The position numbers and the translations under genes were made by a program. 36,173 bases of DNA from Candidatus Aminicenans sakinawicola JGI OTU-1 (GTDB lineage Bacteria; Acidobacteriota; Aminicenantia; Aminicenantales; Aminicenantaceae): contig AWNV01000030.1 in the NCBI GenBank assembly GCA_000493965.1, positions 1 to 36,173 on the forward strand. The letters run 5' to 3'. Below, one piece after another: positions 4,219-35,049 of the stretch; position 1 is the stretch's first letter, and every line of letters starts with the position of its first letter. The notes below the pieces were generated by a model. It saw only the letters and a list, made by a program, of their open reading frames with translations. It did not search any database and had not been told where the DNA came from.

Positions 4219-4231
4219 CTTAATTATAAAA

Positions 4232-12286: not shown

Positions 12287-12312
12287 TATAGAGTCGATGA
12301 ACGAGTAGTTCT

Positions 12313-13047: not shown

Positions 13048-13048
13048 T

Positions 13049-14276: not shown

Positions 14277-14278
14277 TT

Positions 14279-16072: not shown

Positions 16073-17046
16073 TTTTTCCTCCTTTCTCCCAGAATGCGGG
16101 GTCGAGTAGAGCGGTTAAGAAGCGGAACAAAGATATTCATAAAGAGGATAGAAAACATGATGCCCTCGGGGAAGCCGCCAAAAAGCCGTATCAGTCCGAC
16201 AAGGGCACCGATGCCTAAAGCATAAATCCAGGTGCCGAGTTGGGTAACCGGCGATGTGACCATGTCTGTGGCCATAAAGAAAGCACCTATCAGGAGACCT
16301 CCTGCCAGGACGTGAAACAGAGGAGAGGCATATTTGTCCGGGTTGACAAGCCAAAAAACTCCTGTAAAAACAGTTAAAGTACAAATGATTCCCACAGGTA
16401 CACGCCAGTTTATGGCACGCTTGTAGAGGAGAAAGGCAGCTCCAAGCAGAAGAGCAACGGCTGATGTTTCTCCTAAACAACCACCGATGTTTCCCCAGAA
16501 GAGGTCTTTTAGAGGAGTCAAGGAACCCTGGGCAACCGCATCCTGGAATTTTAAATTTCCGAGGGGAGTAGCAAAGGTTGCTGTGTTGAGTTTTAGTGTG
16601 ACAGGAGGAATCCATGTTGTCATAGCGACAGGAAATGCCGTCTGGAGAAAAGCACGGCCAACCAAGGCAGGGTTAAAGATATTATCCCCCAATCCCCCGA
16701 AGACCTGTTTCCCAAGAGCTATTGCCACAACCGCTCCAATAACAGCCAGCTCTAAAGACAAGGATGGAGGAAGAGTCATGGCCAGGAGCAGCCCGGTGAT
16801 TATTGCAGACCCGTCCCAGAGTGAATTCATAGGTTTCTTTCTTACCCAGAGGAAAAGAGCTTCTGTTGCCAAACATGCAGACACACAAAGTGCAAACAGA
16901 ACTAGTGCTCTAAGCCGGAAGAAACAGAAAGATGCAAACGCCGCTGGCATAAGGCTGATGATAACGACATACATGATTTTTGGAACTGAATCTTTATCTT
17001 TAAAGTGAGGTGATGATTGAAGAATAAATGTTTTATTTGTCATCAT
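16069..17046 (-). CDS. rnfD: Rnf complex subunit D
   Basis: This is a polytopic membrane protein. The RnfD/NqrB-type motif ATDMVTSP is present. Its position between rnfC and rnfG fits. Confidence 0.9.
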   Translation of the reverse strand: MMTNKTFILQSSPHFKDKDSVPKIMYVVIISLMPAAFASFCFFRLRALVLFALCVSACLATEALFLWVRKKPMNSLWDGSAIITGLLLAMTLPPSLSLELAVIGAVVAIALGKQVFGGLGDNIFNPALVGRAFLQTAFPVAMTTWIPPVTLKLNTATFATPLGNLKFQDAVAQGSLTPLKDLFWGNIGGCLGETSAVALLLGAAFLLYKRAINWRVPVGIICTLTVFTGVFWLVNPDKYASPLFHVLAGGLLIGAFFMATDMVTSPVTQLGTWIYALGIGALVGLIRLFGGFPEGIMFSILFMNIFVPLLNRSTRPRILGERRKK

Positions 17047-18362
17047 GCACTCTTTTTGCGTTTCATGCTTGTAATTCTATCTTTTCCTAGACGAATCCAG
17101 TGAACCAGCGGAATGTTTGCGGGGCAAGAGTATTGACAGCACCCACATTCTACACAGTCTAAGATACCCCAATTTTCTGCCTCAGGCAAATTGTTGAACT
17201 TGACATATTTCATGAGCTGAGTAGCAACAAGATGCATAGGACAGTGGTCCGCACATCGGCCGCATTGAATGCAGTTGTATTCAAAAGAAGGCTTAGGTTC
17301 TTTCCATGATAAGATCCCCGAAGTCCCTTTGATGACAGGGACATCTGGAGTCCATTGTGTGAGGCCCATCATTGGGCCTCCCATTATCAGGACATTTACA
17401 TCTTCCTCAAACCCGCCGCAAAAATCAATTACGCTTTGAAAGAGACTTCCGATCCGGACGATCAGATTCTTAGGCTCTTTTATGCCTGCTCCGGAGACAG
17501 TGAGGCCTCTCTCATAGAGTGGCTTTCCCTGATTGATGGAATCCCAGATGGCCTTTGCTGTTCCAACGTTCTGGACCACAACCCCAACATCAAAGGGCAG
17601 CCCGCCTTTTGGGACTTCTCGGTTTAGAAGGGAATAAATCAAATTTTTTTCAGCTCCTTGGGGGTATTTTGTCTTGAGGGGAACAGCTTCTGCAGGGAAG
17701 CCATCTGTTTTCTTCTGGAAAAGCTCGAAAGCATCCTGCTTGTTATTTTCGATACCCACTATAATCCGTTTGGCCCCGGTGGCGATGCGGGCGAGTTCTG
17801 CTCCCTTAAGGATATCTTCTGTATATTCAAGCATTAGCCTGTAATCGGCTGTGAGAATAGGCTCGCATTCACAGCCATTTATTATAATTGTGTCAATGGG
17901 CTTATCTTTTGGTGGGGCAAGCTTCACGGCTGTTGGAAAGGCTGCGCCTCCGAGGCCTACTATCCCTGCCTCCCGGACCCTTCTGCAAATCTCATTCGGC
18001 TCCAAAGAGAAAGGATCTTTAACTCCCGTTATTTCGGGAGATAAACGGTCTTCTCCGTCGTTGGCAATAGTGACAGTTAAAACTGGCTTTCCAAGCGGGT
18101 GATTAAAGCCATCTACAGAGAGTACTTTTCCTGATACGCTCGCGTGTACAGATGCGGAAAAAAGTGATTTTGCTTCGCCGATTTTTTGTCCGAGAGATAC
18201 TTCGTCTCCTTTCTTGACTAACGGTTCAGCCGGGCTTCCAAAATGCTGATGGAGGGGAATATAGACTTTTTCAGGGGCAGGCATGGGTTCGAAGGGCTTA
18301 TCTGCTGTAAAGCTTTTGTCCTCGGGAGGATGAGTTCCATGCAGAAAAGTTTTTGATTTCAT
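17043..18362 (-). CDS. rnfC: Rnf complex subunit C (NADH-binding, two 4Fe-4S)
   Basis: GLGGAAFPT is the NADH/FMN-binding loop of RnfC/NuoF-like proteins. C-terminal ferredoxin motifs CIQCGRCADHCP and CVECGCCQYSCP are present. It is the first gene of the operon, and its 4-nt overlap with rnfD indicates translational coupling. Confidence 0.9.
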   Translation of the reverse strand: MKSKTFLHGTHPPEDKSFTADKPFEPMPAPEKVYIPLHQHFGSPAEPLVKKGDEVSLGQKIGEAKSLFSASVHASVSGKVLSVDGFNHPLGKPVLTVTIANDGEDRLSPEITGVKDPFSLEPNEICRRVREAGIVGLGGAAFPTAVKLAPPKDKPIDTIIINGCECEPILTADYRLMLEYTEDILKGAELARIATGAKRIIVGIENNKQDAFELFQKKTDGFPAEAVPLKTKYPQGAEKNLIYSLLNREVPKGGLPFDVGVVVQNVGTAKAIWDSINQGKPLYERGLTVSGAGIKEPKNLIVRIGSLFQSVIDFCGGFEEDVNVLIMGGPMMGLTQWTPDVPVIKGTSGILSWKEPKPSFEYNCIQCGRCADHCPMHLVATQLMKYVKFNNLPEAENWGILDCVECGCCQYSCPANIPLVHWIRLGKDRITSMKRKKSA

Positions 18363-18560
18363 CGTGTGAAGTATAAAAAAATTTAATGCTAAGTTTATTA
18401 ATTATACGGTGGTGTTGTCAACCCCAAAATTAAAAATTAAAGGTCCCTAATCTCTATTTCAAATTAGATTATTAAAATATTATTTTTGCGTTTTGTTCAT
18501 CACTCATGTAAGATAAGGGAAATTATTAGATGAGTTTTGAGACTGAAAAGGGAAGATAAT

Positions 18561-19694
18561 ATGGATATAGAAATCAGAGAAGTAAAAACACACAAGGAAA
18601 TGAAAAAATTTATCTACCTGCCTGAAAAAATTCATGCTGGAAGCGAAAACTGGGTTCATCCTATTTATCAGGATGAATGGAAATACTTTAATCCGGACAA
18701 GAACAAGGCCTTTTCCTTTTGCGAAACAGTTCTGTTGCTTGCCTATAGAGGAAAACATGTTGTTGGCAGGATAATGGGCATTATCAACAACCGGTATAAT
18801 GACAGCCGGAAGGAAAAGACAGCCCGGTTTGGATATTTAGAAACGTGGGAAGACCAGGATGTGGTCCGTTCTCTTCTATGTTATATTGAGGACTGGGCAC
18901 GAAAACAAGGAATGACAAGGGTCATCGGTCCATATGGTTTTACAGACCAGGATCCAGAGGGCTTTTTAATAGAAGGCTTTGAGAATCGTGCAACAATAGC
19001 CACTTATTATAACTTTGAATGGATGCCTGGACTTATAGAAGAACAAGGGTATGTGAAAGACATAGATTATTTTGTATATAAGCTTGAGGTTCCCAAAGTG
19101 ATTCCAGAATTTTACAAGAGGATTTACGAGAGAGTAAAAAGAAATGGGAGTTTCAAGGTTATTGAATTCAGCAAAAAAAAAGAAATCAAGAAGTGGATAA
19201 AACCGGTGCTTCATCTTATGAATGAATGTTATATTGGCAATAATATTTATGGATATGCTGCCCTTGATGAACAGGAAATGGAACAGTTAGCAAAGCGTTA
19301 CATGCCCATCCTGGACCCGAGGTTTTTAAAAGTTGTAACAAAGGATGATGACATTGTAGCCTTTGTCATCGGAATGCCTGACATGACTAAGGGCATTCAA
19401 AAAGCCAGGGGAAAACTTTTTCCTTTAGGGTTGTTTAAAATCCTGAGAGAGGTCAAGAAGACAAAACAGTTGGACTTACTGCTTGGTGCTGTTAAAGAGA
19501 AATACCGTGGACGTGGTATAGATGTGCTTATGGGGGTGAATATGCTTATGTCAGCCAGTGAAGCTGGCCTGGAAGTGATAGATACGCATCATGAGATGGA
19601 AGAGAATGTGAAGGTAAGGGCTGAAATGGAAAAGATGGGAGGGAAAACATATAAGCGCTTCCGTGTTTATGGGAAAAGCCTGCCTACCGAATAA
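18561..19694 (+). CDS. Hypothetical protein, possibly a GNAT-fold acyltransferase-like protein
   Basis: The ORF track starts at a TTG at 18537. The ATG at 18561 has the RBS AAAGGGAAG 6 nt upstream. A weak resemblance to acyl-CoA N-acyltransferase-fold proteins is pattern-level only (...HVVGRIMGIIN... and ...IVAFVIGMPD...). Confidence 0.4.
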   Translation: MDIEIREVKTHKEMKKFIYLPEKIHAGSENWVHPIYQDEWKYFNPDKNKAFSFCETVLLLAYRGKHVVGRIMGIINNRYNDSRKEKTARFGYLETWEDQDVVRSLLCYIEDWARKQGMTRVIGPYGFTDQDPEGFLIEGFENRATIATYYNFEWMPGLIEEQGYVKDIDYFVYKLEVPKVIPEFYKRIYERVKRNGSFKVIEFSKKKEIKKWIKPVLHLMNECYIGNNIYGYAALDEQEMEQLAKRYMPILDPRFLKVVTKDDDIVAFVIGMPDMTKGIQKARGKLFPLGLFKILREVKKTKQLDLLLGAVKEKYRGRGIDVLMGVNMLMSASEAGLEVIDTHHEMEENVKVRAEMEKMGGKTYKRFRVYGKSLPTE

Positions 19695-21562: not shown

Positions 21563-21670
21563 AGACCTTTAAAAAAATAAAATAAAACTTTATAATACTA
21601 CTTTAAAACTTAGAAAAGTCAGTTTAAATAAACCGCCGCTTTTATTTAAAGGCGAATTGTCAAGGAGGTA

Positions 21671-23080
21671 ATGATGACATTTGTCTCCATTTTAATTTTA
21701 ATCGGAATCATAATTGTTATCCTTGTTTTACTATCGATTCTTATAGCGAAGCAGTATAGAAAAGTAGGGCCCAATGAAGTTCTTATTATATCCGGAGGAA
21801 GAAAAAGATCTGTACTCCAGCCTGACGGAACAAAGCGCAAAATAGGCTATCGCTATCGTTTAGGTGGGGGAACATTCGTCTGGCCATTCTTAGAAACAGT
21901 TGATATTTTACCAATCGACGTTATCAACTTGAGTATTAAGATTCCTGAAGTCCTAACCTATGGCGGAATACTCATTATGGCAGACGCTTCTGCGCAGGTC
22001 AAAATTAACTCGGATGAAAACTCCATACGCCTCGCTGCCGAGCAATTCTTGGGTACAGGGAAAGATGGTATCCGCGACATATCATCAACTATTCTTGAGG
22101 GGAAAACGAGAGCTGTTATTGGCACCATGACTGTTGAGGACATATACAGGGGAAGAGGCGAATTTGCAGACAAGGTGATTAAATCTGTGGAAAATGAATT
22201 CTACCGTATGGGACTGACTCTACTCTCCTTTGCCCTAAAAGAAATAAGCGATACCCAGGGATATCTTGATGCACTTGGCAAACCTCAAATTGCAGTAGCC
22301 AAGCGCGATGCCACTATAGCAGAAGCAGAGACTGAAAAAGAAGCAGTGATTAAATCATCCGCGGCCAGAAAAGAAGGAGAAGTTGCCCGCCTCAACGCCG
22401 ATGCACTCATTGCTAAGGCCCAGTGGGAAAACGAAGCAAAAAAGGCAGAATCTCAAGCCCAGGTAAACCAAAAGAAAGCCAGGGCAGATTTTGCTTATGA
22501 ACTCGAGCGTTCTTGTCTAAATCAAGACATTAAAAGAGAAGAAGCCAAGGTAAAACTTATAGAAAAAGAAGAATCTATTAAGCTTGAAACCCTGGAGATT
22601 ACACGAAGGGAGAAAGAACTCGACTCCAGCGTGATTAAACCTGCAGACGCTCGTAAATACCAGATAAAGGCTGAAGCTGAAGCCGAAGGATTCCGCATCC
22701 AGACTGAGGCCAAGGGAAAATCAGAAGCTCTCATGCTTGAAGCAAAGGCAGAAGCTGAAAAAATTAAACAAAAAGGTCTGGCCGAAGCCGAAATCATGCT
22801 GAGAAAAGCAAATGCATGGGAAAAATACAACCAGGCAGCAATCCTCGAAATCTATCTTAAAAGCCTTCCTGAGCTGGCAAGAGCTGTTTCCGAACCTCTG
22901 TCAAAGGTCGATAAAATCATCCTTGTCGGTGGAGATAAAGGTACAGGAGCAACAAAGATAACCTCTCAGGTAGCAGATATCCTTGCTCAGATGCCCGACG
23001 TAGTTGAATCATTAACAGGAATTGACCTGAAAAAATATTTCAAAGAAAAGCTAACGCCTGAAAAGAAAGAAGAATCTTAA
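21671..23080 (+). CDS. Flotillin-like SPFH/band-7 domain membrane protein
   Basis: An N-terminal TM helix is present. An SPFH domain follows. A long Ala/Glu/Lys-rich coiled-coil with EAEAE repeats is typical of flotillin FloA/YqiK. There is an AGGAGG RBS. Confidence 0.8.
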   Translation: MMTFVSILILIGIIIVILVLLSILIAKQYRKVGPNEVLIISGGRKRSVLQPDGTKRKIGYRYRLGGGTFVWPFLETVDILPIDVINLSIKIPEVLTYGGILIMADASAQVKINSDENSIRLAAEQFLGTGKDGIRDISSTILEGKTRAVIGTMTVEDIYRGRGEFADKVIKSVENEFYRMGLTLLSFALKEISDTQGYLDALGKPQIAVAKRDATIAEAETEKEAVIKSSAARKEGEVARLNADALIAKAQWENEAKKAESQAQVNQKKARADFAYELERSCLNQDIKREEAKVKLIEKEESIKLETLEITRREKELDSSVIKPADARKYQIKAEAEAEGFRIQTEAKGKSEALMLEAKAEAEKIKQKGLAEAEIMLRKANAWEKYNQAAILEIYLKSLPELARAVSEPLSKVDKIILVGGDKGTGATKITSQVADILAQMPDVVESLTGIDLKKYFKEKLTPEKKEES

Positions 23081-23101
23081 TTGTTGGCCGAGAAAGAACA
23101 A

Positions 23102-25453
23102 ATGATAGTATCAGATAAAGCAAATCAAATAGGCGAATCTCCCACTCTAAAGGTAACGGCTAAAGCAAAGGCCATGAAGGCTTCAGGTGTCGATGTTATA
23201 GACCTGAGTGTAGGCGAGCCGGATTTCCCTACACCCGAGAATGTGAAATCAGCCGGGATAAAAGCCATAGAGGAAAACTTTACAAAGTATACCCAGGTTG
23301 ATGGAATCCCACCGTTAAAAGAAGCAATCATAAGCAGGATGAAGCAAGATCTGGGCCTGACATATGAAAAAAATGAACTCATTGTCTCCTCTGGCGCAAA
23401 GAGTGCCCTCTATCATCTTATGCTTGCCCTGGTAAACGAAGGCGATGAAGTCATCATTCCCTCTCCTTACTGGGTTACTTATCCGCATGCTGTTTCGCTT
23501 GCAAAGGGGAAAGCAGTAATCATTCCAACCAAAGAAGAAAACGGCTTTCTGCTTACTCCGGAGCAGTTGGAATCAGCTATCTCTCCTGCAACAAAAGCCG
23601 TTCTTTTGAACAACCCTTCCAACCCCACAGGAGCTGCATATCAAAAACATGACCTTGAAGCTCTTGCAGACATTGTTCTGGAAGAAAATATCTACGTTAT
23701 TGCAGACGAAATATACGAAAAACTTATCTTCGACGACTTTCACTTTGTGAGTTTTGCATCTCTTGGAGAAGACATAAAAAAGAAAATAGTTATTATCAAC
23801 GGGGTTTCAAAGGCCTATTCAATGACCGGATGGCGGATAGGCTATGCGGCAGGCCCTTCAGAAATCATAAGTGCAATGGCCAGGATTCAGAGCCACACGA
23901 CATCCAATGCCTGCTCGATTTCCCAAAAGGCAAGCCTGGAAGCACTCAGCGGACCCCAGTATGAAATTTCAAAAATGGTTTCAGAATTCCAGAGGCGAAG
24001 GAATTACGGCTTGATGAGACTCCAATCTATTCCTAATATTTCCTGTTCTAAGCCAAAAGGAGCTTTCTATCTTTTCCCCAATGTTTCTTCTTGCTACGAA
24101 AAAGAATTCAATAATGTCCTGATCCGCAACTCCTACGGCCTTGCGTATTACTTACTAAAAGAAGCCAAAGTCGCAGTCGTTCCTGGAGATGCTTTTGGCA
24201 ATGATGATTATATCCGCATATCCTATGCAACATCCATGGAAAACCTTGAAAAGGGCATGAACAGAATCATTGAAGCTTTATCCCGCCTGAAGACAGCCAA
24301 AAGGGTCAAGCGTATTCGCTTAAACAATACTCAAACCAGGATAAAAAAATCCGTCCCTATCGATTCCTCTATATCCGTACAGATGAGAGATGCACTTACA
24401 TCTGAAATGGAAACACATATCGGTTATGAGAACTATTTTGAGTGGAATGCAAACATTAACGGAGTCATTGTGCAACTGCGTACAAATGTATCCCACCTGT
24501 ATGATTTCTGGGTTGAGAACTGGTATCCAGCCCAGCTTGAAGCAGACCTGGAACCCCATGGCATTATTTACGCTATAGACGGGATATCAGGGAGAGAACC
24601 GCGCTCTTTTTACAATTCTGAGACTAAAACAGGCATACTTGTTAACACAGATAACTACGGGCCGTTACGCAGCCTCGCTCTCGGTCTTGTTGCGGATGTC
24701 TCTGAAAGGCTTTTCAAGGTTCATACGATACGGGGGATGTCTGCAGACATGGAAGGAGATGGCTTGATTCTTGTCGGACCAAAAGGAACCAAGAAAACCG
24801 AACTGTTTTTATCCCTGCTTCAGGATAAGAGATTCCGTCTGCATGCTAACGACATTGTTTTTGTCCGTTTTTCAGGAGTAACAGCGCTGGCTGATTCTTC
24901 TGAAAGAAAATTTTATATGCCTACAAACACAGTGCAATCCCTTCCCAAATTGGCATCTCTATTTGACAACAGCAAATGTGAAAATGTTATTACACGAAAA
25001 GAAGACTGTCAAAACGATAAGTGCCTGCAGCTCGATGACTGCAGACTCGACAGGGGTTCCCCATTTTGCTACGAGGCAGCAAAAAACTCCTATTCAATGC
25101 TTGACCCCTACTGGATCGAAGGCCCGGCAAAACACGTAAAACGTACGGTTCTCCGGTGGATATTTATCCTTCGCTGTGATACGGTCTCTCCACCTTTTGT
25201 AAAGATGGACCCCGAAGACGCTTTGCGCACTCTTGAGTATGGTGAAAGCATTGGAATCAAGAAAGACATCAGCGCATCCAAAAGCCAACCATATTACAAC
25301 CCGCATCTTCTGGTGACAACTGGAGAGCGAATGGAATTTCAAAAGAATTTCTTCAGGCGCCTTCTCGAAAATATACCCTGCTATTTATTCAACAGCGGAG
25401 CAGCTTCAGCAGAGGATATAAAGCGCATAGTGTCGGGAGAAGATAAGACTTAA
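23102..25453 (+). CDS. Fusion protein: an N-terminal class-I aspartate-type PLP aminotransferase (about 395 aa) joined to a C-terminal degenerate PEPCK/HprK-superfamily P-loop domain (about 385 aa)
   Basis: The N-terminus has LSVGEPDFPTP, NPSNPTG and GVSKAYSMTGWRIGY, where the SKAY lysine is the PLP Schiff-base Lys. The C-terminus has HTIRGMSADMEGDGLILVGPKGTKKTELF, which aligns with E. coli PckA [29 protein letters not shown]. The P-loop Gly is replaced (GPKGTKKT versus GxxxxGKT). LHANDIVFV replaces LIGDDEHGW. The NTGW-equivalent reads YLFNSGAA. It is a single uninterrupted ORF. The ORF track starts at a TTG at 23081, and ATG 23102 is preferred. Confidence 0.75.
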   Translation: MIVSDKANQIGESPTLKVTAKAKAMKASGVDVIDLSVGEPDFPTPENVKSAGIKAIEENFTKYTQVDGIPPLKEAIISRMKQDLGLTYEKNELIVSSGAKSALYHLMLALVNEGDEVIIPSPYWVTYPHAVSLAKGKAVIIPTKEENGFLLTPEQLESAISPATKAVLLNNPSNPTGAAYQKHDLEALADIVLEENIYVIADEIYEKLIFDDFHFVSFASLGEDIKKKIVIINGVSKAYSMTGWRIGYAAGPSEIISAMARIQSHTTSNACSISQKASLEALSGPQYEISKMVSEFQRRRNYGLMRLQSIPNISCSKPKGAFYLFPNVSSCYEKEFNNVLIRNSYGLAYYLLKEAKVAVVPGDAFGNDDYIRISYATSMENLEKGMNRIIEALSRLKTAKRVKRIRLNNTQTRIKKSVPIDSSISVQMRDALTSEMETHIGYENYFEWNANINGVIVQLRTNVSHLYDFWVENWYPAQLEADLEPHGIIYAIDGISGREPRSFYNSETKTGILVNTDNYGPLRSLALGLVADVSERLFKVHTIRGMSADMEGDGLILVGPKGTKKTELFLSLLQDKRFRLHANDIVFVRFSGVTALADSSERKFYMPTNTVQSLPKLASLFDNSKCENVITRKEDCQNDKCLQLDDCRLDRGSPFCYEAAKNSYSMLDPYWIEGPAKHVKRTVLRWIFILRCDTVSPPFVKMDPEDALRTLEYGESIGIKKDISASKSQPYYNPHLLVTTGERMEFQKNFFRRLLENIPCYLFNSGAASAEDIKRIVSGEDKT

Positions 25454-25487
25454 GGCTAAATCCAATATATATTAATGGCATATTGAA

Positions 25488-27317
25488 ATGGACAAAAGCA
25501 TTTATAACCAGGAAGCATATAAAAAATTTTCAGAGGAACTTCAGAGAGTTTTAAAAGGTCCCAATATAAAGACAGTAGATTTAAAATGGCTTGAACCTCG
25601 GGCAAAAGAAACAGGGATTAAAACAAAATACGGGTCTTATGGATGGAGATCAGCCATATCAAGCCGGATCGCTCCCAAAACAGTCTATCTCGGCAGGGAA
25701 GCAGTAAGGCTTACGCGGCCGACTCCAGTTCACGAATCCATAATCGCCAACGCTCCAGAAGAACTGGATAAAGTCCTCCACCTGCTTCGGACGCTTCCTT
25801 TCTATCATATAAGGAGGCAGATGGGAGAAAACGACTCATTCAACCCAATGTGTAATCTCTATGTCTCTGATGCAGACCTTATCAACAGACGGATCGGGCT
25901 CATGTGGGGGACAACCATGTTTAAGCCTGGAAAACGGCCTGGGCCTGAATTTACAATGATCCACATTCCAGAAGAGCATCCTCTCCGTCAGCAAATACTT
26001 GCTATACCGGAATACAGGATCAATATCGCTCTCGGAACAGACTATTTGGGGGAGGATAAAAAAGGATTCCTCCGCCTGGCAATGTGGATGGCCGATGAGC
26101 AGGGGATGATAGGTCTCCATTCAGGAACTAAGATTGTTACGGTCAGAGATGTCAACAATAAACTTAAAACCTACGGCGTTTTTCTTTTCGGATTGACTGC
26201 AACAGGAAAATCCACCTGGTCCTGCCACCAACTCGGACTCGATTATGGAAAAGGAGAAAAAACATTAGTCACTCAAGACGATATATGTTTCCTTAGAAAA
26301 GATGGCTCAGCCTTTGGATCAGAAAACAATTTCTTTGTAAAAACAGATGTCGAACAAGAATACCAGGAAGCAATGTACAATGCCTTAATCGATAAAACCG
26401 CTCTCTTTGAGAACGTCATGATCAAATCCAACGGAAATGTAGATTTTCTGGATGAAAGCCTAACGGCAAACGGAAGAGCCGTTCTTCAGCGCAACAAACT
26501 CAAAGTCAACATAAAAGGCAAAATGGTAGGCATCTTCTCTAAAACCATAAACCTCCCGCCGCTGGAAGAACTGGATGGGATTGTATTTGCCTTTATCACG
26601 CGGAGGAACACCATAATGAACTTTGCCCAGGAACTAACTCCTGAACAGGCAGTTCTTGCATACCTATGGGGGGAAAGCACCCACAGTTTTGCCAGTCAGC
26701 CTCTCAAGGCTGGAGAATCCGTACGTATCGTCGGAACAGATCCTTTCATAGTCGGTTCCAGGGCCAGAAAAGTCAACCGTTTCTACGATATCATAATGAC
26801 TCTTGCCAGCAATTATCCGGGAAAAGTCAAATTCATGCAGTACAACACAGGAGGAATGGGAGAGATCATTGAGACCTCTGAGGAGAACGGAAAAGAGAAA
26901 AAGAGGCTTGTCCGTAAGGTCGCCCGTGTTCCGATCAGCCTCATGTCCCAAATTCAAAGAGGCGACCTGCGCGGAACTAACTCCTATGAAAAAGGAAGAC
27001 TCGGTACAAAAGAAATCAAGCTTGCCGAAGGAAAAAGTCTTGATGAATGGAATGTCAACAAATTCTATTCTGAAGAGCAAATCCAGAATTATATCAAGGA
27101 CCTTGTCGAAGGAAGAAGAAAATTCACAGAAGAAGTATCAGAGGAAGGGCTTCGGAACGAAGTTCTCTATGCTGCAGAGCGCTCCTTCCGTATAGATAAA
27201 AGCACAAAAAAAACGAGTATTTCTGTGCCCGAAATGGGTTCTGCAGGGGAGGAAATATTCTCATACAGGGAATCCAAATCACGACCGCGGCGTGCCGGAT
27301 TCTGGCGGAGCCGTTAA
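25488..27317 (+). CDS. Divergent phosphoenolpyruvate carboxykinase (ATP)-like protein with an intact P-loop and a C-terminal extension
   Basis: FLFGLTATGKST is the kinase-1a motif GxxxxGKS. LTPEQAVLAYLWGES aligns with E. coli LTADQTQYHFLSGFTAK. QYNTGGMGE aligns with NTGWNG. The metal and catalytic segment is altered: TQDDICFLRKDG replaces IGDDEHGWDDDG. The protein is 609 aa against about 540 for PckA. It lies directly downstream of the fusion gene. Confidence 0.7.
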   Translation: MDKSIYNQEAYKKFSEELQRVLKGPNIKTVDLKWLEPRAKETGIKTKYGSYGWRSAISSRIAPKTVYLGREAVRLTRPTPVHESIIANAPEELDKVLHLLRTLPFYHIRRQMGENDSFNPMCNLYVSDADLINRRIGLMWGTTMFKPGKRPGPEFTMIHIPEEHPLRQQILAIPEYRINIALGTDYLGEDKKGFLRLAMWMADEQGMIGLHSGTKIVTVRDVNNKLKTYGVFLFGLTATGKSTWSCHQLGLDYGKGEKTLVTQDDICFLRKDGSAFGSENNFFVKTDVEQEYQEAMYNALIDKTALFENVMIKSNGNVDFLDESLTANGRAVLQRNKLKVNIKGKMVGIFSKTINLPPLEELDGIVFAFITRRNTIMNFAQELTPEQAVLAYLWGESTHSFASQPLKAGESVRIVGTDPFIVGSRARKVNRFYDIIMTLASNYPGKVKFMQYNTGGMGEIIETSEENGKEKKRLVRKVARVPISLMSQIQRGDLRGTNSYEKGRLGTKEIKLAEGKSLDEWNVNKFYSEEQIQNYIKDLVEGRRKFTEEVSEEGLRNEVLYAAERSFRIDKSTKKTSISVPEMGSAGEEIFSYRESKSRPRRAGFWRSR

Positions 27318-27874
27318 CTTAAATCTTCTTCTATTTTCTGGGCTAAGAGATGAAGCAGAATGAGATGTATTTCCTGAATCCGTGGGGTTTCCTCGGAAGG
27401 CACATCAATAAGAAAATCAGGAAGAGAGGCGAGGTTGCCTCCTCCCTCTCCAGTAAAAGCAGCGGTTAGCAATCCTCTCTTTTTAGCTGTTTTAATGGCC
27501 TCAATTATGTTTGGCGAATTTCCACTTGTCGAAAGCCCGATAGCAATATCGCCTTTAGTTCCAAGCGCTTCTATTTGGCGGCTGAATACATAATCGAAAG
27601 AGGAGTCATTGGCGATAGAAGTCAGGGCAGACGTATCTGTTGTCAATGAGATTGCGCAAATTGCAGGCCTGTCTATTAAAAACTTGTTTACAAGTTCTGC
27701 ACAAAAATGCTGTGCCTGGGCTGCGCTCCCACCATTTCCAAAAACAAGAATCTTACGGCCTGCTTTCAAACTTTCACACATTCTATCGGCCAGTCTTTGA
27801 AAAAGATCTCCCTTATTTTTGGAAAATTCCTCCATTATATATGACAGGTTTTTAATTATATTTTGACAGCGCAC
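27314..27874 (-). CDS. gmhA: D-sedoheptulose-7-phosphate isomerase (SIS domain)
   Basis: ILVFGNGGSAAQAQHFCAEL matches GmhA CGNGGSxxDAxHFAAEL. The SIS-domain motif GLSTSGNSPNI is present. The start is uncertain: the ORF track begins at TTG 27892, the GTG at 27874 has an AAGGAG RBS 6 nt upstream, and ATG 27835 is also possible. Its stop overlaps the stop of the convergent PEPCK-like gene. Confidence 0.8.
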   Translation of the reverse strand: MRCQNIIKNLSYIMEEFSKNKGDLFQRLADRMCESLKAGRKILVFGNGGSAAQAQHFCAELVNKFLIDRPAICAISLTTDTSALTSIANDSSFDYVFSRQIEALGTKGDIAIGLSTSGNSPNIIEAIKTAKKRGLLTAAFTGEGGGNLASLPDFLIDVPSEETPRIQEIHLILLHLLAQKIEEDLS

Positions 27875-28002
27875 TTTTTCTCCTTTCTGCAATTATAGCA
27901 TTTTACCATTGTCATTTACTATCCAGAATTATTCAGGAGTTCCCCAAGTTTTTTATCTCGTGTATTCTGCTGGATCAGGGCAGCTGCTTCTATGAAATAA
28001 TT

Positions 28003-29129: not shown

Positions 29130-29687
29130 TCAAACACCACCAGCTCTTGTTATAGGACCAACAATCCATGCACCGTTCCATGTAGCCAGGTCTTTATTGA
29201 AATCTGCCATGCTGCTTACTATATAAAACCCACTTGTCGGATCAGCTGCAGTGTAGTATGGGCCGGGGCCATCTGCACCATCACGCCCTTTAGAGCCAAC
29301 CACAAAGTCATCTGTCCCTGGTGCTGGAGTTGCAGGAATTCCCCACTTACTTGCTACATTTGCCGCGCAAAAAACATAAAAATCATTTCCCCACTGATCA
29401 TTCACAGGAAGCGACTTGACATAGAATGGACATATGGCAGTATAGAAACTGTCAGCAACAGTGTAAACACCATTCTGAGCGGTTGTGGAAGTTGGGGCGA
29501 CACCGTTGTCGGTGACATAATCCATACATGCCGTTGTGATCGTCATGATGTCCTTCATGGTTCCTTTCTGCTTGGCTTTCTGTAAGGCGGACATTGCGTT
29601 GGGGATGAGAAGTGCTGCAAGAATTCCAATTATGGCTACAACGATGAGCAGTTCGATAAGTGTAAAACCTTTAGATTTTTTAAACAT
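29130..29687 (-). CDS. pilA: Type IV pilin (major pilin-like, class III prepilin signal)
   Basis: MFKKSKG|FTLIELLIVVAIIGILAALLIP has the prepilin peptidase cleavage motif G/FTLIE with Glu at position +5. The protein is 185 aa with Cys residues in the C-terminal domain. A GGAGG RBS sits 8 nt upstream. Confidence 0.85.
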   Translation of the reverse strand: MFKKSKGFTLIELLIVVAIIGILAALLIPNAMSALQKAKQKGTMKDIMTITTACMDYVTDNGVAPTSTTAQNGVYTVADSFYTAICPFYVKSLPVNDQWGNDFYVFCAANVASKWGIPATPAPGTDDFVVGSKGRDGADGPGPYYTAADPTSGFYIVSSMADFNKDLATWNGAWIVGPITRAGGV

Positions 29688-29771
29688 TTAAAACCTCCAA
29701 TTTTTTCCCGGCGATTTTTTCTCTTTCACCGGAAATTTATTTTCATGATTTTTCATGATATCAATATTACA

Positions 29772-29787
29772 GCAATTTCCGTGCCAA
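29772..29787 (-). promoter_or_regulatory. Sigma-54 (RpoN) -24/-12 promoter for pilA
   Basis: The minus strand reads TGGCACG-GAAA-TTGCT. This is a perfect match to the sigma-54 consensus TGGCACG-N4-TTGCW, including spacing. It lies about 85 nt upstream of the pilA ATG, and the sigma-54 activator gene pilR is immediately upstream. Confidence 0.7.
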
Positions 29788-29924
29788 GCATGGCACATTG
29801 TAACATGTTGAATATAAGCAAGTTATATATTTTACGCCCGTGGATTCTTTTAGAAAGTGACATTATTTGTCGTTCTGCTGACAATTATTTGCATTAATGG
29901 AAGAAAACCATATCCCCTGAATTC

Positions 29925-31331
29925 TCAGCGCTCTTTAATTTCTTTCTCTATGTTGTTATCTTCATTAAAAGACTTCAGTCCGTATTTGTCGATCATATAT
30001 CTTAAAGAACGGTAATTTATTCCTAATAGAGAAGAGGTTTCCTTGAGATTTCCGCCGGTGCTCTTGAGAGCATGTCTGATGTAGTTGGAGGAGATCTCGT
30101 CCAGGGTTTTATTCAGGTTAAACTCAGGCTGGGATAGAAAATCTGTCTCTATATGGCTCTTTGGAGAAAGGAGTTCATCCGGAAGACTTCCTTGAGTAAT
30201 GGTTTCTCTTTCTTCGATAACAACAGTTCTTTCGATTACATTTTCCAGCTCCCTGATATTCCCCGGCCAGGGATAAGATTCAAAGACCTTTATCACTTCG
30301 GGAGCAACTCTTTTCTTCCTTTTTTCCATCTTCTGGCAGTATTTCTGGATAAAATGAGACACAAGATAAGGAATATCTTCCTTTCGCTTCCTTAATGGCG
30401 GCATCTCGAGAGAGAGGACATTAAGGCGGTAAAACAGGTCTTCCCGGAATTTTCCTTCTTTTATATTCTTTTTTAAATCCTGATTCGTTGCCGCAATTAT
30501 TCGAACATCCACGGAAATTTCATCCGTTCCTCCCACTCTTCTGATTTTCTTCTCCTGAAGAGCCCTGAGGAGCTTAACTTGTGTCCAGGGAGTCATCTCT
30601 CCGATCTCATCCAAAAATAGAGTCCCGTGGTCTGCTACCTCAAACATTCCTTTCTTATTTGCAATCGCTCCTGTGAAAGAGCCTTTTACATGGCCGAACA
30701 GCTCGCTTTCGAGCAAGCCCTCGGGTAAAGCCCCGCAGTTTATGGTAACAAAAGGTTTTTCCACGCGCAGACTCTTGGAGTGAATGGCGCGTGCTGCTAT
30801 TTCTTTTCCTGTCCCGCTTTCTCCTGTGATAAGAACCGTTGAATCGGTACGTGCTATTCTCTCAATCAGCCCGAATATTTCATTCATTATCCTGCTTTCT
30901 CCAATTATATTCTCGAAACCGAATCTTTCTTTGAGCTGTTCTTTTAGAAGAATATTCTCCTGCTTCAACCTTTTCTTTTCCAGGCCCTGGGCAATGATGA
31001 TTTTCAGCTCTTCTATATCGAAAGGTTTGACAACATAATCTGTTGCCCCTTCTTTAAGCGCTTCTACGGCCTGTCTGATAGTGCCGAAAGCTGTGATCAT
31101 GACAACAGGAACATCAGGTCTTTTTTCCCTGACATGCATTAATATTTCCATTCCGCTTATTTGGGGAAGTTTTATATCAGAAAGAACGATATCAAAGTCT
31201 TCTCTATCGATATATTCAAGAGCTTTGCTGGCTGAAAAGAATGTTTCTACCTGATATCCCTCTTTTTTGAATACGACATTTAAAAGGTCAAGGATGCTCT
31301 TTTCATCGTCTATAATCAGTATTTTTTCCAT
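29925..31331 (-). CDS. pilR: Sigma-54-dependent response regulator (NtrC family, PilR-like)
   Basis: A receiver domain is present (DDE...D54-like DIVLSD, ...KP). The AAA+ sigma-54 activator has Walker A GESGTGKE, the GAFTGA-loop variant GSFTGA and ESELFGH. A C-terminal Fis-type HTH is present. Confidence 0.9.
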   Translation of the reverse strand: MEKILIIDDEKSILDLLNVVFKKEGYQVETFFSASKALEYIDREDFDIVLSDIKLPQISGMEILMHVREKRPDVPVVMITAFGTIRQAVEALKEGATDYVVKPFDIEELKIIIAQGLEKKRLKQENILLKEQLKERFGFENIIGESRIMNEIFGLIERIARTDSTVLITGESGTGKEIAARAIHSKSLRVEKPFVTINCGALPEGLLESELFGHVKGSFTGAIANKKGMFEVADHGTLFLDEIGEMTPWTQVKLLRALQEKKIRRVGGTDEISVDVRIIAATNQDLKKNIKEGKFREDLFYRLNVLSLEMPPLRKRKEDIPYLVSHFIQKYCQKMEKRKKRVAPEVIKVFESYPWPGNIRELENVIERTVVIEERETITQGSLPDELLSPKSHIETDFLSQPEFNLNKTLDEISSNYIRHALKSTGGNLKETSSLLGINYRSLRYMIDKYGLKSFNEDNNIEKEIKER

Positions 31332-31340
31332 TTTTTTTAC

Positions 31341-32618
31341 TTACTCCCTTTTCCTGTCATTGCCTTCCGGTAAAACAATTACAATCTCTGACCCTTTGTT
31401 GGGCGTGGAAAATACATGTATTTTCCCATTGTAATCGTCAACAATACGTCGAACTACTGCCATTCCGATTCCTTTTCCCGTGTCGAAACCAGAATAAAAC
31501 GGCTCAAACATTCTTTCTCTTTCTTCTTTTCCCATGCCCTTTCCCGTATCGGCAAATTTCATCTGGATTCCTTTCTTTTTCCTCCTTGTAAAATCCACTG
31601 TTAACGTCCCGCCATCAGGCATTGCTTTTAGAGCATTTTTTAAAAGATTCCAGAATATTTGTTTGAATTGAGCTTTATTTCCATAATAATTAACTCTTGC
31701 TGTTTTATAATTTCCCTCTATCTGGTAATTTTCATTGATCTCGCCGCTTCTTTTAAGCAGTGTCAATATTTCTTTCAAAACAGAAGGAAGGTCAATCGAA
31801 GCAAAATCTTGCGTTCCAGGAGAAGCTAAATTTAGGAATTGTTCTATGGATTGAGAAATGTTCTCCGATTCTCTGACAACAATGTCCATCAAATGTCTTT
31901 GTTCTCCTGTCAAATCCATCTCATCTCTGAGCACCTGAACAGAGCCTGATATGGCAGCAAGAGGATTTCTTATTTCATGGGCAAGGTTAGCCGATGTTTC
32001 CCCTGCCACGGCAAGATCCTTTTTTATCTCAAGCTCCTTCTGAGCCAGGCGGAGTTCATCTCTTGTTTTTCTCAAATTTCCGGTTAAATGATTTATTAAA
32101 AAGGCCACGATAATAAAAACACCCCATGCAGTAAGAATATTGCTTAACACCGCGCTCAAAGAAAGCTCTTGAGACAGTTCAGGATATAAATATGGAATTA
32201 TTGCATAGTACATCCCGTCGATGAGAAGCCCATAAAATACTGCGGATAAAGCTGCAACAAGATATGTCGTTCGTTTCGAGATAACGACGCTTGCGGCAAT
32301 GATTTCAAATATATACAACGAATAGAATGAACCCTTTATCCCACCCGATATGTATATAAGAGCAGTAATCAGCAGAAGATCGATGAATATCTGTAGATAT
32401 GCCTGAAATGTATAATTTTTTGCCGCATAGAAAAGGATAAAATATACAATGGATAATAAATAAACAAATAGAACCAGATAATAAAGATAATAAAAAGAAT
32501 TAAGATTGAGGAGAACCTCTGTACTGTACTGAATTATAACAGTAGAAACAGCAAGAGAAGTCACAATGATCAAGCGGACAATGATAAACCAAAAAATATC
32601 GTTTTTCTTTGTGTTCAC
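31341..32618 (-). CDS. pilS: Sensor histidine kinase (PilS-like, polytopic membrane N-terminus)
   Basis: About six N-terminal TM helices are present. The H-box is HEIRNPLAAISG. The HATPase_c G-boxes are DTGKGMG and GKGIGMAVV. Confidence 0.8.
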   Translation of the reverse strand: MNTKKNDIFWFIIVRLIIVTSLAVSTVIIQYSTEVLLNLNSFYYLYYLVLFVYLLSIVYFILFYAAKNYTFQAYLQIFIDLLLITALIYISGGIKGSFYSLYIFEIIAASVVISKRTTYLVAALSAVFYGLLIDGMYYAIIPYLYPELSQELSLSAVLSNILTAWGVFIIVAFLINHLTGNLRKTRDELRLAQKELEIKKDLAVAGETSANLAHEIRNPLAAISGSVQVLRDEMDLTGEQRHLMDIVVRESENISQSIEQFLNLASPGTQDFASIDLPSVLKEILTLLKRSGEINENYQIEGNYKTARVNYYGNKAQFKQIFWNLLKNALKAMPDGGTLTVDFTRRKKKGIQMKFADTGKGMGKEERERMFEPFYSGFDTGKGIGMAVVRRIVDDYNGKIHVFSTPNKGSEIVIVLPEGNDRKRE

Positions 32619-32709
32619 AACTTGATTCTCTATTTGAAATATCCGGGTTTCCTTTTACTTGAGATTTACTACCCGATTTAAATACCAGGGCAAATTAGCC
32701 AACGATTCT

Positions 32710-33912
32710 TTACAGCTTTCCGAGAAGGCTGAAAATGGGAAGGTACATGGAAATAATAATCGTCCCGACCATTCCTCCAACAAAAATAAGAAGAACCGGC
32801 TCCATTATTGATAGAAGCGCTGCTGTTGTCGATTCCACTTCGTCGTCATAAAAATCGGCTAACTTTGACAGCATCTCATCAAGAGTTCCCGTGGCTTCTC
32901 CGACACCAACCATCTGGATGAACATGAAAGGGAATTGACCGACCTCACGGAGGGCATCCGTAAGACTCGATCCTTCAGCCACCAGTGTTCGAGACTGCAT
33001 TACATAATTTTCAACAACAACATTACCTGAAGTCGTAGATGTAATCTTAAGGCTTTCCAGCATGGGAACGCCTCCTGAGAGAAGAGTGCTCAATGTCCTT
33101 GTAATCCGGGACAATCCTACTTTCTCCAGTAGTTTTCCAAATAAAGGTATTTTGAGTGTTATTCGGTCAAAAACCTTTCGCCCTTCATTCGTGCGCCTTA
33201 TGTAGCCTAAGAGTAAGAACAGCCCAATAAATCCCAATGCTATAAATAGAATGTATTTCTGTATGAATCCGCTTAAAGCTAATACTCCTGCCGTGAGAGC
33301 GGGAAGCTGAGCCCCGAGTTCAAGATAAATGTTGGCAAAGACAGGAATAACTTTCCACATCATGAAAATCACCACAACGATCGAAAAAAGCACAATAGAT
33401 GTTGGATAGATCATAGCCTGTCTCACTTGAGACCTTAACTTGACAATCTTTTCCAAAAATTCCGCCAACCGCTTCAGCATAATATCAAGAGAACCACTCT
33501 CCTCTCCAGATGCAACTAAATTGCAGTAAAGGTCATCAAAGACTTTTGGAAACTTCCTTTTGGCTTGATTCAGAGTCGAGCCCCCTTCAACATCTTCCCT
33601 GATCTCTTGAATGACATGCTTGAAATATCTGTTTTTAGTTTGTTCGGCCAGGATATTTAAGCTCTGGATCAGAGGAAGTTCAGCATCTATCAACACAGAA
33701 AGCTGTCTGCTGTAGATAGCCAAATCTTTTAGCTTGACTTTCTGCCGTTGAAGAAAGGGGATTTTTAATTCTGCTCTTGTTCTTTTAATGTCCTCGACTA
33801 CGACCTGTTCCCGCTGAAGGCTTTTTGCCAGTCCTTCGGCTGAACGAGCAATACGTTTCCCTTGGACAATATCCCCATAACGGTTTTTCCCTTTCCACTC
33901 ATATAAAGGCAT
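32710..33912 (-). CDS. pilC: Type IV pilus / type II secretion platform protein (GspF/PilC family)
   Basis: The protein is 400 aa with two repeated GspF domains and three TM segments. The conserved LLxxGxPlxxaL blocks are LLSGGVPMLESL. Its position after pilT fits. Confidence 0.9.
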   Translation of the reverse strand: MPLYEWKGKNRYGDIVQGKRIARSAEGLAKSLQREQVVVEDIKRTRAELKIPFLQRQKVKLKDLAIYSRQLSVLIDAELPLIQSLNILAEQTKNRYFKHVIQEIREDVEGGSTLNQAKRKFPKVFDDLYCNLVASGEESGSLDIMLKRLAEFLEKIVKLRSQVRQAMIYPTSIVLFSIVVVIFMMWKVIPVFANIYLELGAQLPALTAGVLALSGFIQKYILFIALGFIGLFLLLGYIRRTNEGRKVFDRITLKIPLFGKLLEKVGLSRITRTLSTLLSGGVPMLESLKITSTTSGNVVVENYVMQSRTLVAEGSSLTDALREVGQFPFMFIQMVGVGEATGTLDEMLSKLADFYDDEVESTTAALLSIMEPVLLIFVGGMVGTIIISMYLPIFSLLGKL

Positions 33913-33928
33913 TTTTTACCCCTTTTTT

Positions 33929-35047
33929 TTATTTTCTCATCTGGCTTGGAGAAAAACTCCTTGATGTCACCTTGAGGCCTTCTTTCCTTTGGATTATATC
34001 GGTTAGTTCTTCCTGCTTTGAACTTATGTTCAAGGCTGTCTCGAGTGTGATTAATTTCTTAAAATAAAGGCTTGCCAGAGATTGATTGAATGTTTGCATT
34101 CCGAATTTTTCCTGTCCCATCTGCATAGATGAATAGATCTGGTGGGTTTTATTTTCCCTGATCAGATTCCTGATTGCAGAATTCGGGATGAGGATCTCCA
34201 TGGCAAGAACCCGGCCTTTACCATCTGCACGAGGCAGAAGAGTCTGGGTTATGACTGCCTCCAAACTCATGGAAAGCATGATTCTCACCTGGGCCTGGTA
34301 CTGGGAGGGGAAGATATCGATAATTCTTGATATTGTCTCAGCAGCAGAGTTTGTATGAAGAGTAGAAAAAGTCAGATGCCCGGTTTCTGCTACACGTAAG
34401 CAGGCTTCTACAGTTTCCAGGTCTCTCATCTCACCGACCAGGACTACATCCGGATCTTCTCTCAAAACTGAGCGGAGGGCGTTGGGATAAGATAGTGTAT
34501 CGACAAAAAGCTCTCTTTGGTTGACTATGGCTTTTTTTGGTGTGATAAAATATTCAATCGGGTCTTCTATAGTAACTATATGAACAGCTCTTTCTTTATT
34601 GATGTGATCTATCATGCAAGCAAGTGTTGTTGATTTTCCACAGCCCGTTGGCCCGGTTATTATTACAAGTCCCCTTGGCAGGAAACAAAGCTTGGCCAGT
34701 CTTTGGGGAATTCCCAGTTGAGAAAAACTCCACATGATAGGAAGGAACCTCCGGAAAGCTGCTGCCACTGCCCCTTTCTGCATAAAAACATTTCCACGAA
34801 ATCGCCCCAAATCCTTAAGCCCAAAAGAAAAGTCAAGTTCGAGTTTTTCTTCAAACTGTCTCTTTTGCCTGTCTGTCAATAGGCTATAGATCAAAGCTTT
34901 AGATTCTGCTGGTGTTAAGGGGGGATGGTCAAGGGAGATAAGTTCTCCATCAATTCTAATCCGAGGAGGTATATGTGTTGTTATGTGAATATCACTGGCA
35001 TCCCTTTCAACAGCAATTTGTAATAATTCTTGAATTGTTATTGCCAT
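33929..35047 (-). CDS. pilT: Twitching-motility retraction ATPase PilT
   Basis: MAITIQELLQIAVERDASDIHI is the PilT N-terminus. Walker A is GPTGCGKST. Asp-box, Walker B and His-box regions are present (VLVGEMRDLET, HLTFSTLHTN). The length is 372 aa. Confidence 0.9.
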   Translation of the reverse strand: MAITIQELLQIAVERDASDIHITTHIPPRIRIDGELISLDHPPLTPAESKALIYSLLTDRQKRQFEEKLELDFSFGLKDLGRFRGNVFMQKGAVAAAFRRFLPIMWSFSQLGIPQRLAKLCFLPRGLVIITGPTGCGKSTTLACMIDHINKERAVHIVTIEDPIEYFITPKKAIVNQRELFVDTLSYPNALRSVLREDPDVVLVGEMRDLETVEACLRVAETGHLTFSTLHTNSAAETISRIIDIFPSQYQAQVRIMLSMSLEAVITQTLLPRADGKGRVLAMEILIPNSAIRNLIRENKTHQIYSSMQMGQEKFGMQTFNQSLASLYFKKLITLETALNISSKQEELTDIIQRKEGLKVTSRSFSPSQMRK

Positions 35048-35049
35048 TT

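Follow-up and report, generated by a model that had tools for sequence, protein, structure and literature searches.

Why should a bacterium join an aspartate aminotransferase covalently to a domain resembling phosphoenolpyruvate carboxykinase (PEPCK), and place one more PEPCK-like gene directly behind it? The question is raised by a locus of Candidatus Aminicenans sakinawicola JGI OTU-1 (Acidobacteriota, Aminicenantia), which lies on a chromosomal stretch of 36,173 nucleotides (contig AWNV01000030.1, assembly GCA_000493965.1; hereafter the window) that also carries dnaA-dnaN. Three genes on the forward strand are concerned: the first encodes a FloT-like flotillin of 469 amino acids (aa; 21671..23080), the second, open reading frame (ORF) A, encodes an aspartate aminotransferase (AspAT) with a C-terminal "mini-PEPCK" domain (CTD), and the third, ORF B (25488..27317), encodes a divergent full-length ATP-type PEPCK of 609 aa, designated PCKL. 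The answer proposed here, to which we give about an even chance, is a flotillin-linked AspAT-PEPCK assembly held together by a pseudo-PEPCK domain. Its parts (AspAT of subgroup Ib, ATP-type PEPCK, FloT-like flotillin) are of known kinds and the fold is known; the domain family and the architecture are new.

The three genes are closely packed, with 21 nt between the flotillin stop codon and the ATG of ORF A and 34 nt between ORF A and ORF B. A consensus scan alone revealed a promoter-like site, TTTAAA-17-TATAAT, upstream of the flotillin gene (21568..21596), a possible operon promoter, and no terminator-like sites were detected on the forward strand from this site to 27317. Flotillin, AspAT-CTD and PCKL are predicted to form a three-gene operon. 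The open frame of ORF A (23081..25453) yields 790 aa when counted from the first TTG; its likely start is the ATG at 23102, giving 783 aa. The stop codon of ORF B overlaps by 4 nt the 3′ end of a convergent SIS-domain gene (27314-27892, reverse strand), and no terminator-like site was detected between these two. The closest homologues of ORFs A and B are found in Aminicenantes metagenome-assembled genomes, with identity of up to 96-100%.

Before any function is discussed, the fusion itself has to be trusted. The first-pass annotation of the window had described a single ORF joining an aminotransferase to a PEPCK-like domain, and the frame is indeed continuous as described. Throughout the Aminicenantes species genomes (80/80), the two parts adjoin each other in one reading frame, and the fusion also occurs in loci of other lineages, so that it is not confined to one assembly. 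An artefact that joined two genes by frameshift or misassembly might be invoked from a few public assemblies (L004, L005) where the gene is split into two calls, but these calls overlap, as local sequencing errors would give, the 80 in-frame genomes come from many studies, and other phyla have fused proteins of full length (P0241, P0242; 781-785 aa). Such an artefact is ruled out for practical purposes, its probability being negligible.

The AspAT domain of ORF A (23102..24283) has the class I fold of pyridoxal phosphate (PLP) enzymes. It matched PF00155 over essentially the whole profile (aa 38-396, profile positions 2-361 of 361; E = 2.8e-78, 264.1 bits vs. a gathering score of 19.7), and its PLP lysine lies within NGVSKAYSMTGWRIGY (nt 23807-23842), with SKAY at nt 23807-23818, in line with the earlier description of a complete class-I aminotransferase with an intact lysine in SKAY. 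The segments NGVSKAYSMTGWRIGY, NPSNPTG and ADEIYEK aligned column by column with AspAT B of Sinorhizobium (6f35), the Schiff-base lysine in its S-K-x-x-x-M-x-G-x-R motif and the NPxNPTG and DEIY motifs all being present. The best solved relatives are subgroup Ib AspATs, namely Sinorhizobium AspAT B (8e-108), Phormidium 1j32 and Thermus 1bkg (2.7e-88), with an unchanged PLP-lysine motif. Among the curated models, too, those of aspartate transaminases come closest, with scores below the equivalog cut-offs (NF004769, 442 vs. 617 bits; NF041091, 416.5 vs. 550 bits); judged by these scores, the enzyme is closest to AspATs, yet it is no equivalog of the NF004769/NF041091 clades. Stand-alone AspATs of about 400 aa from Aminicenantes, Bacteroidota and Ignavibacteria are 57-72% identical to the N-terminal half of ORF A, which looks like an ordinary housekeeping AspAT with an additional domain acquired. 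In public records, ORF A is named merely "pyridoxal phosphate-dependent aminotransferase", leaving half of the protein unannotated.

This additional domain follows an interdomain linker (LKTAKRVKRIRLNNTQTRIKK..., 24284..24349), where the predicted local distance difference test (pLDDT) of the full-length structural model dips to about 70. The CTD (24350..25453; 367 aa plus stop codon) corresponds to aa 424-790 in the TTG-frame numbering and belongs to a family without a Pfam or NCBIfam model. Pfam searches with the CTD returned no significant family and no PF01293 match, and a PDB sequence search with the CTD alone returned only noise. The curated matches were NF006821 (1.8e-6, 26.8 bits vs. 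a cut-off of 369) and, marginally, models of HPr kinase/phosphorylase (HprK). Nevertheless, the profiles of the CTD family and the ORF B family were aligned by hhalign over 241 columns with an E-value of 1.9e-6, and the AlphaFold2 (AF2) model of the CTD, based on 76 homologues, reached a mean pLDDT of 93.1 and a predicted template modelling score (pTM) of 0.91. Profile comparison and modelling together are strong evidence that the CTD has a PEPCK fold, its likeness to PEPCK being far above chance by the alignment statistics, and the C-terminal half of ORF A can be accepted as the PEPCK-fold domain with changed catalytic positions that had been described before. Membership in PF07475/HprK, considered earlier as well, was rejected, as the scores are well under the cut-offs (PF07475, 11.6 vs. 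33.3 bits; TIGR00679, 17.9 vs. 240 bits).

Roughly two-thirds of the PEPCK fold is present in the CTD, which lacks ~95 aa at the start, R65 among them, and ~75 aa at the end. The roles of the E. coli PEPCK residues are established by PEPCK crystallography, and the E. coli numbering, checked on the sequence, is used for the residue positions of the CTD. Retained in the CTD are Y207 (as Y), K212 (R), H232 (H), K254 (K), T255 (T), D269 (D) and K288 (K); G253 is changed to K, D268 to N and R333 to Y, and the R65 segment is absent, so that the catalytic set is incomplete. The reported motifs GPKGTKKT and NDIVFV were both found, the former (24776..24799) being a modified Walker A with the Gly before Lys replaced and Lys and Thr retained, and the latter belonging to a kinase-2 segment HANDIVFV (24842-24865), where N-D (24848..24853) replaces D268-D269 of PEPCK. 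To call this P-loop degenerate, as the first-pass annotation did, is correct for the replaced Gly but too simple for the rest: the pattern G-[PAS]-x-G-[TS]-[KRNQS]-K-[TS] was found in 80/80 Aminicenantes loci, where the Walker Lys and the Thr/Ser are invariant and the Gly position drifts. The hairpin bearing R333 is replaced by a five-cysteine insertion, C-x10-C-x4-C-x4-C-x8-C (24977..25072), the Y at 25091-25093 taking the R333 position. This insertion, which may be a metal (Zn or Fe-S) site, is kept in at least 77 of the 80 Aminicenantes loci and is absent from free-standing and Zixibacteria-type members of the family. The mean pairwise distance of the CTD is 0.37, compared with 0.29 for both the aminotransferase and PCKL; two genes nearby, SIS and PlsC, reach 0.54-0.67. 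By this measure, the domain evolves slowly and is under strong purifying selection. Given the missing R65 segment and the changes at G253, D268 (to N) and R333 (to Y), we read the CTD of Aminicenantes as non-catalytic for phosphoryl transfer. Probably, it is a non-catalytic derivative kept under selection as an adaptor or sensor, which may still bind a phosphate-bearing ligand or nucleotide via the retained Lys/Thr.

If a sensor, the CTD would be an allosteric one, responding to nucleotide, PPi, PEP or oxaloacetate held by the equivalents of the P-loop Lys/Thr, D269, K288 and Y207, and it would regulate the fused aminotransferase without a PCKL complex. The presence of the Walker Lys and Thr/Ser in all 80 species alongside the replacement of the catalytic Gly, of D268 and of R333, the near invariance of the Y, R (K212), D and K (K288) equivalents across the CTD family, and the strong purifying selection are all in keeping with such a role. 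We find it unlikely nonetheless. In the AF2 model of full-length ORF A, both domains are well folded (mean pLDDT 90.9), but no confident contact between the aminotransferase and the CTD is seen (pTM 0.59); sublineages whose P-loops lack both Lys and Thr (GMKRG, GTGGS, GAGLS and, in the protein P0254 described below, GSSENDIA) still retain the domain; and a sensor leaves unexplained both the CTD-PCKL fusion and the flotillin linkage. The full-length model agrees better with a flexibly tethered CTD than with a rigid bifunctional active site, and ORF A as a whole is predicted to be a dimer-type subgroup Ib AspAT followed by a flexible linker and a mini-PEPCK domain.

Outside the lineage of the window, the CTD family is small, with 337 clusters (50% identity) out of 1.84 billion representatives at E ≤ 1e-3 and relatives in 355 of 185,579 GTDB species genomes. 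Its free-standing members of about 360-410 aa (P0113 and P0120 of Deltaproteobacteria, P0245 of Omnitrophota) retain GxxGxGK[ST], DD and Arg. The P-loop is likewise intact in a distant branch of about 555 aa, one member of which, P0311, harbors an intein (PF14890, 1.5e-16; residues about 200-400) directly after the GKS of Walker A. From the intact P-loops in these two groups it follows that the ancestor of the family was probably an active P-loop enzyme. In the Zixibacteria-type fusions, Lys/Thr are lost (GMKRG) and Arg is retained. The first-pass annotation had spoken of a tandem paralogous pair, but a recent tandem duplication of ORF B does not account for the CTD: the two align at the profile level only, and the CTD family has free-standing members and other architectures of its own, which makes it a separate, small and older family.

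Could the CTD still be an enzyme in Aminicenantes, i.e., a small P-loop enzyme, either a kinase or a carboxykinase, that acts on a new substrate (the product of the aminotransferase or, as for HprK, a protein), so that ORF A would be bifunctional? P0113, P0120, P0245 and the fused P0052, which retain the equivalents of H232, K288 and R333 along with GxxGxGK[ST] and DD, speak in favor of this, as does the intein, since inteins are typical of functionally critical sites. For the window lineage, however, G253, D268 and R333 are all replaced, the N-terminal segment bearing R65 is absent, and the sixth P-loop position varies (K, R, N, Q or S), so that we regard an active CTD there as quite improbable.

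Several observations on the family are recorded here in their own right. Two free-standing relatives with an intact P-loop (L001, 9130-10095; L086, 7533-8495, Deltaproteobacteria) adjoin the gene of a protease whose family, NfeD1b_N/Peptidase_S49, is usually partnered with SPFH/stomatin proteins; no SPFH gene turned up in the 8 kb around either. On the Zixibacteria chromosome CP070796.1, the fusion (L003, 8003-9577) is missing ~265 aa at the N-terminus of its aminotransferase, the PLP lysine among them, and may represent a genuinely truncated form, a pseudogene or a wrong gene call. The same chromosome has a second CTD-bearing gene (P0089). A Calditrichota contig (L088) carries two inverted copies of the fusion (2593-4422 and 10985-12422), one of them cut short, which may reflect an assembly artefact or a real duplication.

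If the CTD has lost catalysis, is the neighboring PCKL competent? ORF B was described earlier as a divergent PEPCK with an intact Walker A, and this holds: GLTATGKST is present (26190..26216), followed by the kinase-2 DD at 26277-26282, and PF01293 scored 90.7 bits vs. a gathering score of 26.5, the match being limited to the core (profile positions 133-321). NF006821 matched over nearly the whole length with 285.6 bits, and hhalign aligned ORF B with E. coli Pck over its full length (probability 97.2 over 471 columns). Homologues of ORF B are named "phosphoenolpyruvate carboxykinase (ATP)" in public records. In an alignment of 13 sequences from at least four lineages, R60, Y186, K191/K192, H211, G240-K241-S242, D264/D265, K285, R330 and NTGG are invariant, corresponding to R65, Y207, K212/K213, H232, G253-K254-T255, D268/D269, K288, R333 and NTGW of E. 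coli Pck; the least certain pair is R60 and R65, which falls in a low-confidence hhalign stretch with a one-residue offset. ORF B looks like a divergent ATP-type PEPCK, predicted to be a competent carboxykinase with the catalytic apparatus kept, probably including the R65 equivalent. The altered metal segment noted before is real in that QDDICF is present, but the catalytic defect it seemed to imply is not, given that the D268/D269 equivalents are invariant; as judged from the alignment, the change from DDEH to DDIC touches no known ligand.

ORF B is also longer than E. coli Pck. Of the ~70-aa excess, described before as a C-terminal extension, about 40 aa lie beyond the end of the E. coli protein, internal insertions making up the rest. 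Its basic/aromatic C-terminal tail, KSRPRRAGFWRSR (27276..27314), follows a variable acidic linker and has the consensus [KS]RP[RK]R-x2-3-[FW][WR]R-x-[RK]. The tail is common to stand-alone PCKLs encoded beside fusions, both in Aminicenantes and in L005, L087, L088 and L093, and is absent from the fused P0254. A role as a docking peptide or in membrane binding is conceivable.

A nucleoside diphosphate kinase (NDK) gene adjoins the module in the four other-lineage loci with downstream sequence (L003, 9587-9997; L005, 11149-11559; L087, 2764-3174; L088, 8530-8940); there is none in the Aminicenantes loci or in the window. This adjacency may be a clue to which nucleotide the PEPCK-like enzyme uses.

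The most tightly linked partner of the fusion is one that the first-pass annotation did not mention, the flotillin. The protein has an N-terminal transmembrane segment, an SPFH/Band_7 domain and a Flot domain; it scored above the cut-off for PF01145 (3.5e-27, 96 vs. 23.6 bits), just under it for PF15975 (6.5e-6, 26.7 vs. 27 bits) and far from it for the FloT model NF058507 (372 vs. 700 bits), and is by these scores flotillin-like without being a FloT equivalog. Its gene immediately precedes the fusion in all Aminicenantes loci with sufficient sequence (68/68) and likewise in all five other-lineage loci with upstream sequence (L005, L087, L088, L093, L094), at a distance of 17-21 nt; the exception is the truncated Zixibacteria copy L003. 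PCKL lies directly downstream of the fusion in 55 of 66 Aminicenantes loci and is adjacent also in L005, L087, L088 and L093, where the CTDs are 46-54% identical. The gene order varies among the lineages: flotillin-fusion-PCKL-NDK in L005, flotillin-fusion-NDK-PCKL in L087, fusion-PCKL-NDK together with flotillin-fusion in L088 (Calditrichota), PCKL divergent from flotillin-fusion in L093, flotillin-fusion only in L094 (CSSED10-310), and the N-terminally truncated fusion followed by NDK in L003 (Zixibacteria).

Two natural arrangements are especially informative. First, in the 899-aa protein P0254, encoded on three independent contigs (L090, 8001-10700; L091; L092), a CTD and a PCKL are joined covalently, in the manner of a Rosetta stone. 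Residues 12-321 match the CTD of the window (E = 2e-55), this part having no P-loop, and residues 347-884 match ORF B (40% identity, E = 2e-125), with NF006821 above its cut-off (416 vs. 369) and PF01293 matched in full length. This PCKL has no basic C-terminal tail, and no flotillin is encoded nearby; the contig neighbors (V4R, Roadblock/LC7, TFIIE-like HTH) look archaeal. Together with the conserved adjacency in several lineages, the P0254 fusion supports the functional AspAT/PEPCK link that had been proposed for the window. Second, in two independent assemblies (L097, 6001-7221; L098, 2695-3915), a stand-alone aminotransferase of 406 aa, 67% identical, stands in the same synteny as in the window (RNase PH, UXS, aminotransferase, SIS, PlsC, pilins, PilR, PilS), and flotillin, CTD and PCKL are all absent. 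The module as a whole thus shows a natural presence/absence polymorphism, and the three behave as one unit that can be inserted or deleted around a resident AspAT. Flotillin and CTD, in particular, appear always to be gained or lost together (68/68 loci; L097/L098). In mirror-tree comparisons of 28 species, the CTD-PCKL pair gave the highest correlation, 0.85 raw and 0.58 after the UXS/SIS/PlsC distances were regressed out; after this background removal, CTD-aminotransferase gave 0.46 and CTD-flotillin 0.05.

These data bear on a further possibility, namely that the CTD mainly couples the aminotransferase to flotillin and targets it to the membrane, PCKL being a neighbor in the pathway and not a physical partner. 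The co-occurrence of CTD with flotillin is stricter than with PCKL (68/68 vs. 55/66); flotillin and fusion occur without an adjacent PCKL in L094 and in 11 Aminicenantes loci; flotillin and CTD are lost jointly in L097/L098; and free-standing CTD relatives stand beside the NfeD1b_N/S49 protease, whose family partners SPFH proteins. Against this, the covalent CTD-PCKL protein P0254 has no flotillin nearby, the background-corrected correlation favors PCKL over flotillin, PCKL too is lost in L097/L098, and the only PCKL without the tail is the one joined covalently to a CTD. On balance, we hold a membrane-targeting role of this kind to be rather unlikely.

The assembly that we prefer would work as follows. 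The CTD of Aminicenantes, no longer catalyzing phosphoryl transfer, would act as a pseudo-PEPCK adaptor, bringing active PCKL to the AspAT dimer, the docking being achieved by a pseudo-dimer of the two paralogous folds and/or by the basic C-terminal tail of PCKL. Oxaloacetate formed by the aminotransferase would then be handed to PEPCK (Asp → oxaloacetate → PEP + CO2) or, in the reverse direction, PEP carboxylation would serve aspartate synthesis. The flotillin, predicted to be co-transcribed, would place or organize the assembly at the membrane. In its fullest form, i.e., a flotillin with a dedicated operon-encoded metabolic client, an AspAT-PEPCK metabolon built on a pseudo-PEPCK adaptor, with PCKL captured by its tail and the whole organized by the SPFH protein at the membrane, the proposal is a tentative one and less likely than not to hold.

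A number of observations weigh against the proposed assembly. The score of ORF B lies below the NCBIfam subfamily cut-off (369 bits for NF006821) and far below that of the pckA equivalog TIGR00224 (42 vs. 590). The monomer AF2 model of ORF A has no fixed interface between the aminotransferase and the CTD. In the 11 of 66 Aminicenantes loci mentioned above, the SIS gene follows the fusion immediately, and L094 likewise has no adjacent PCKL; the CTD therefore does not strictly need a neighboring PCKL. Neither PCKL nor flotillin is found near the free-standing CTD relatives L001 and L086. Among the fused proteins, P0052 has a fully intact Walker A, DD and R333, and P0242 an intact GSGKT, so that catalysis by the CTD is conceivable when the family is taken as a whole. 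The mirror-tree signal, being based on 28 species and on non-independent distances, is suggestive only. Finally, we know of no role for flotillin in soluble central metabolism.

An anti-phage defence function was considered as well and set aside, as PADLOC gave no matches for flotillin, ORF A or ORF B. Elsewhere in the window, dnaA and dnaN (4199-6775) coincide with a cumulative GC skew minimum at ~4-5 kb, and the window probably spans the chromosomal replication origin. A complete-looking operon for an Rnf-type complex (11309-18362, reverse strand; RnfC, D, G, E, A and B homologues) is adjoined by genes for an ApbE flavin transferase and a NusG_II-domain protein. A type IV pilus/type II secretion system (T2SS) cluster (29130-36105, reverse strand) includes a pilin, a PilR-type sigma-54 activator, a PilS-type kinase, a PilC-like T2SSF protein and two T2SSE ATPases. 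Three sizeable ORFs (428-1120, 1139-4096 and 18537-19694) are scarcely annotated: Pfam gave no match for the 230-aa and 385-aa products and only PD40 beta-propeller repeats for the 985-aa product. Rfam and tRNA scans of the window found nothing.

A literature search yielded no description of an AspAT-CTD fusion, of a PEPCK pseudoenzyme serving as an adaptor, or of a flotillin-PEPCK link; nor were the mini-PEPCK family, its fusions to AspAT and PEPCK, or its invariant flotillin linkage found in curated profile libraries and the literature. If true, the proposed assembly would tie a flotillin to central carbon/nitrogen metabolism by a genetically hard-wired link, the first of its kind, and would provide a new case of a pseudoenzyme that recruits its active paralogue. 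Oxaloacetate is unstable and stands at a major branch point, and a hard-wired AspAT-PEPCK assembly would offer a clean, testable case of channelling between nitrogen metabolism and carbon metabolism, in a phylum that is widespread and uncultured. The CTD family, with its active-looking free-standing members, P-loop-degenerate fused members and direct fusion to PEPCK, provides a system for following the path from enzyme paralogue to adaptor, and the flotillin linkage gives a rare genetic handle on what bacterial flotillins organize.

How do the parts compare with known systems? The N-terminal 400 aa of ORF A align end to end with subgroup Ib AspATs (1bkg, Sinorhizobium A/B 6f77/6f35, the aspartate/prephenate enzyme 5wmh; E from 1e-88 to 1e-108) and share with them the PLP Lys motif and the GAK lysine; unlike ORF A, none of these has a C-terminal PEPCK-like domain. 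With ATP-PEPCKs (E. coli PckA, T. cruzi 1ii2; PF01293, NF006821), ORF B aligns in full length and retains the catalytic residues, differing in its insertions, linker, conserved basic tail and below-cut-off NF006821 and pckA scores, whereas the CTD touches NF006821 only, with about two-thirds of the fold, G253, D268 and R333 replaced, a five-Cys insert and scores under the Pfam threshold. The CTD is much closer to PEPCK than to HPr kinase/phosphorylase and does not have the HprK N-terminal domain. NDUEG2 (8j9h), a PEPCK-fold accessory subunit of respiratory complex I of Euglena gracilis, is eukaryotic and mitochondrial, 11% identical, and has no aminotransferase or flotillin context. In bacterial flotillin operons (FloT/FloA, YqiK with NfeD), flotillins are closely coupled to NfeD proteins; here, too, the upstream gene is FloT-like and apparently close-coupled translationally to its downstream partner, but this partner is a soluble metabolic enzyme fusion instead of an NfeD protein. 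The closest metabolic parallel is the combination of AspAT with PEPCK decarboxylation in PEPCK-type C4 photosynthesis and in gluconeogenesis from aspartate, where Asp is converted into oxaloacetate and then into PEP and CO2. We know of no paralogous adaptor domain in the plant route. The two consecutive reactions in C4 plants are the same as those proposed for the unit in the window, but the plant enzymes are separate proteins, whereas here they are linked genetically and, by inference, physically.

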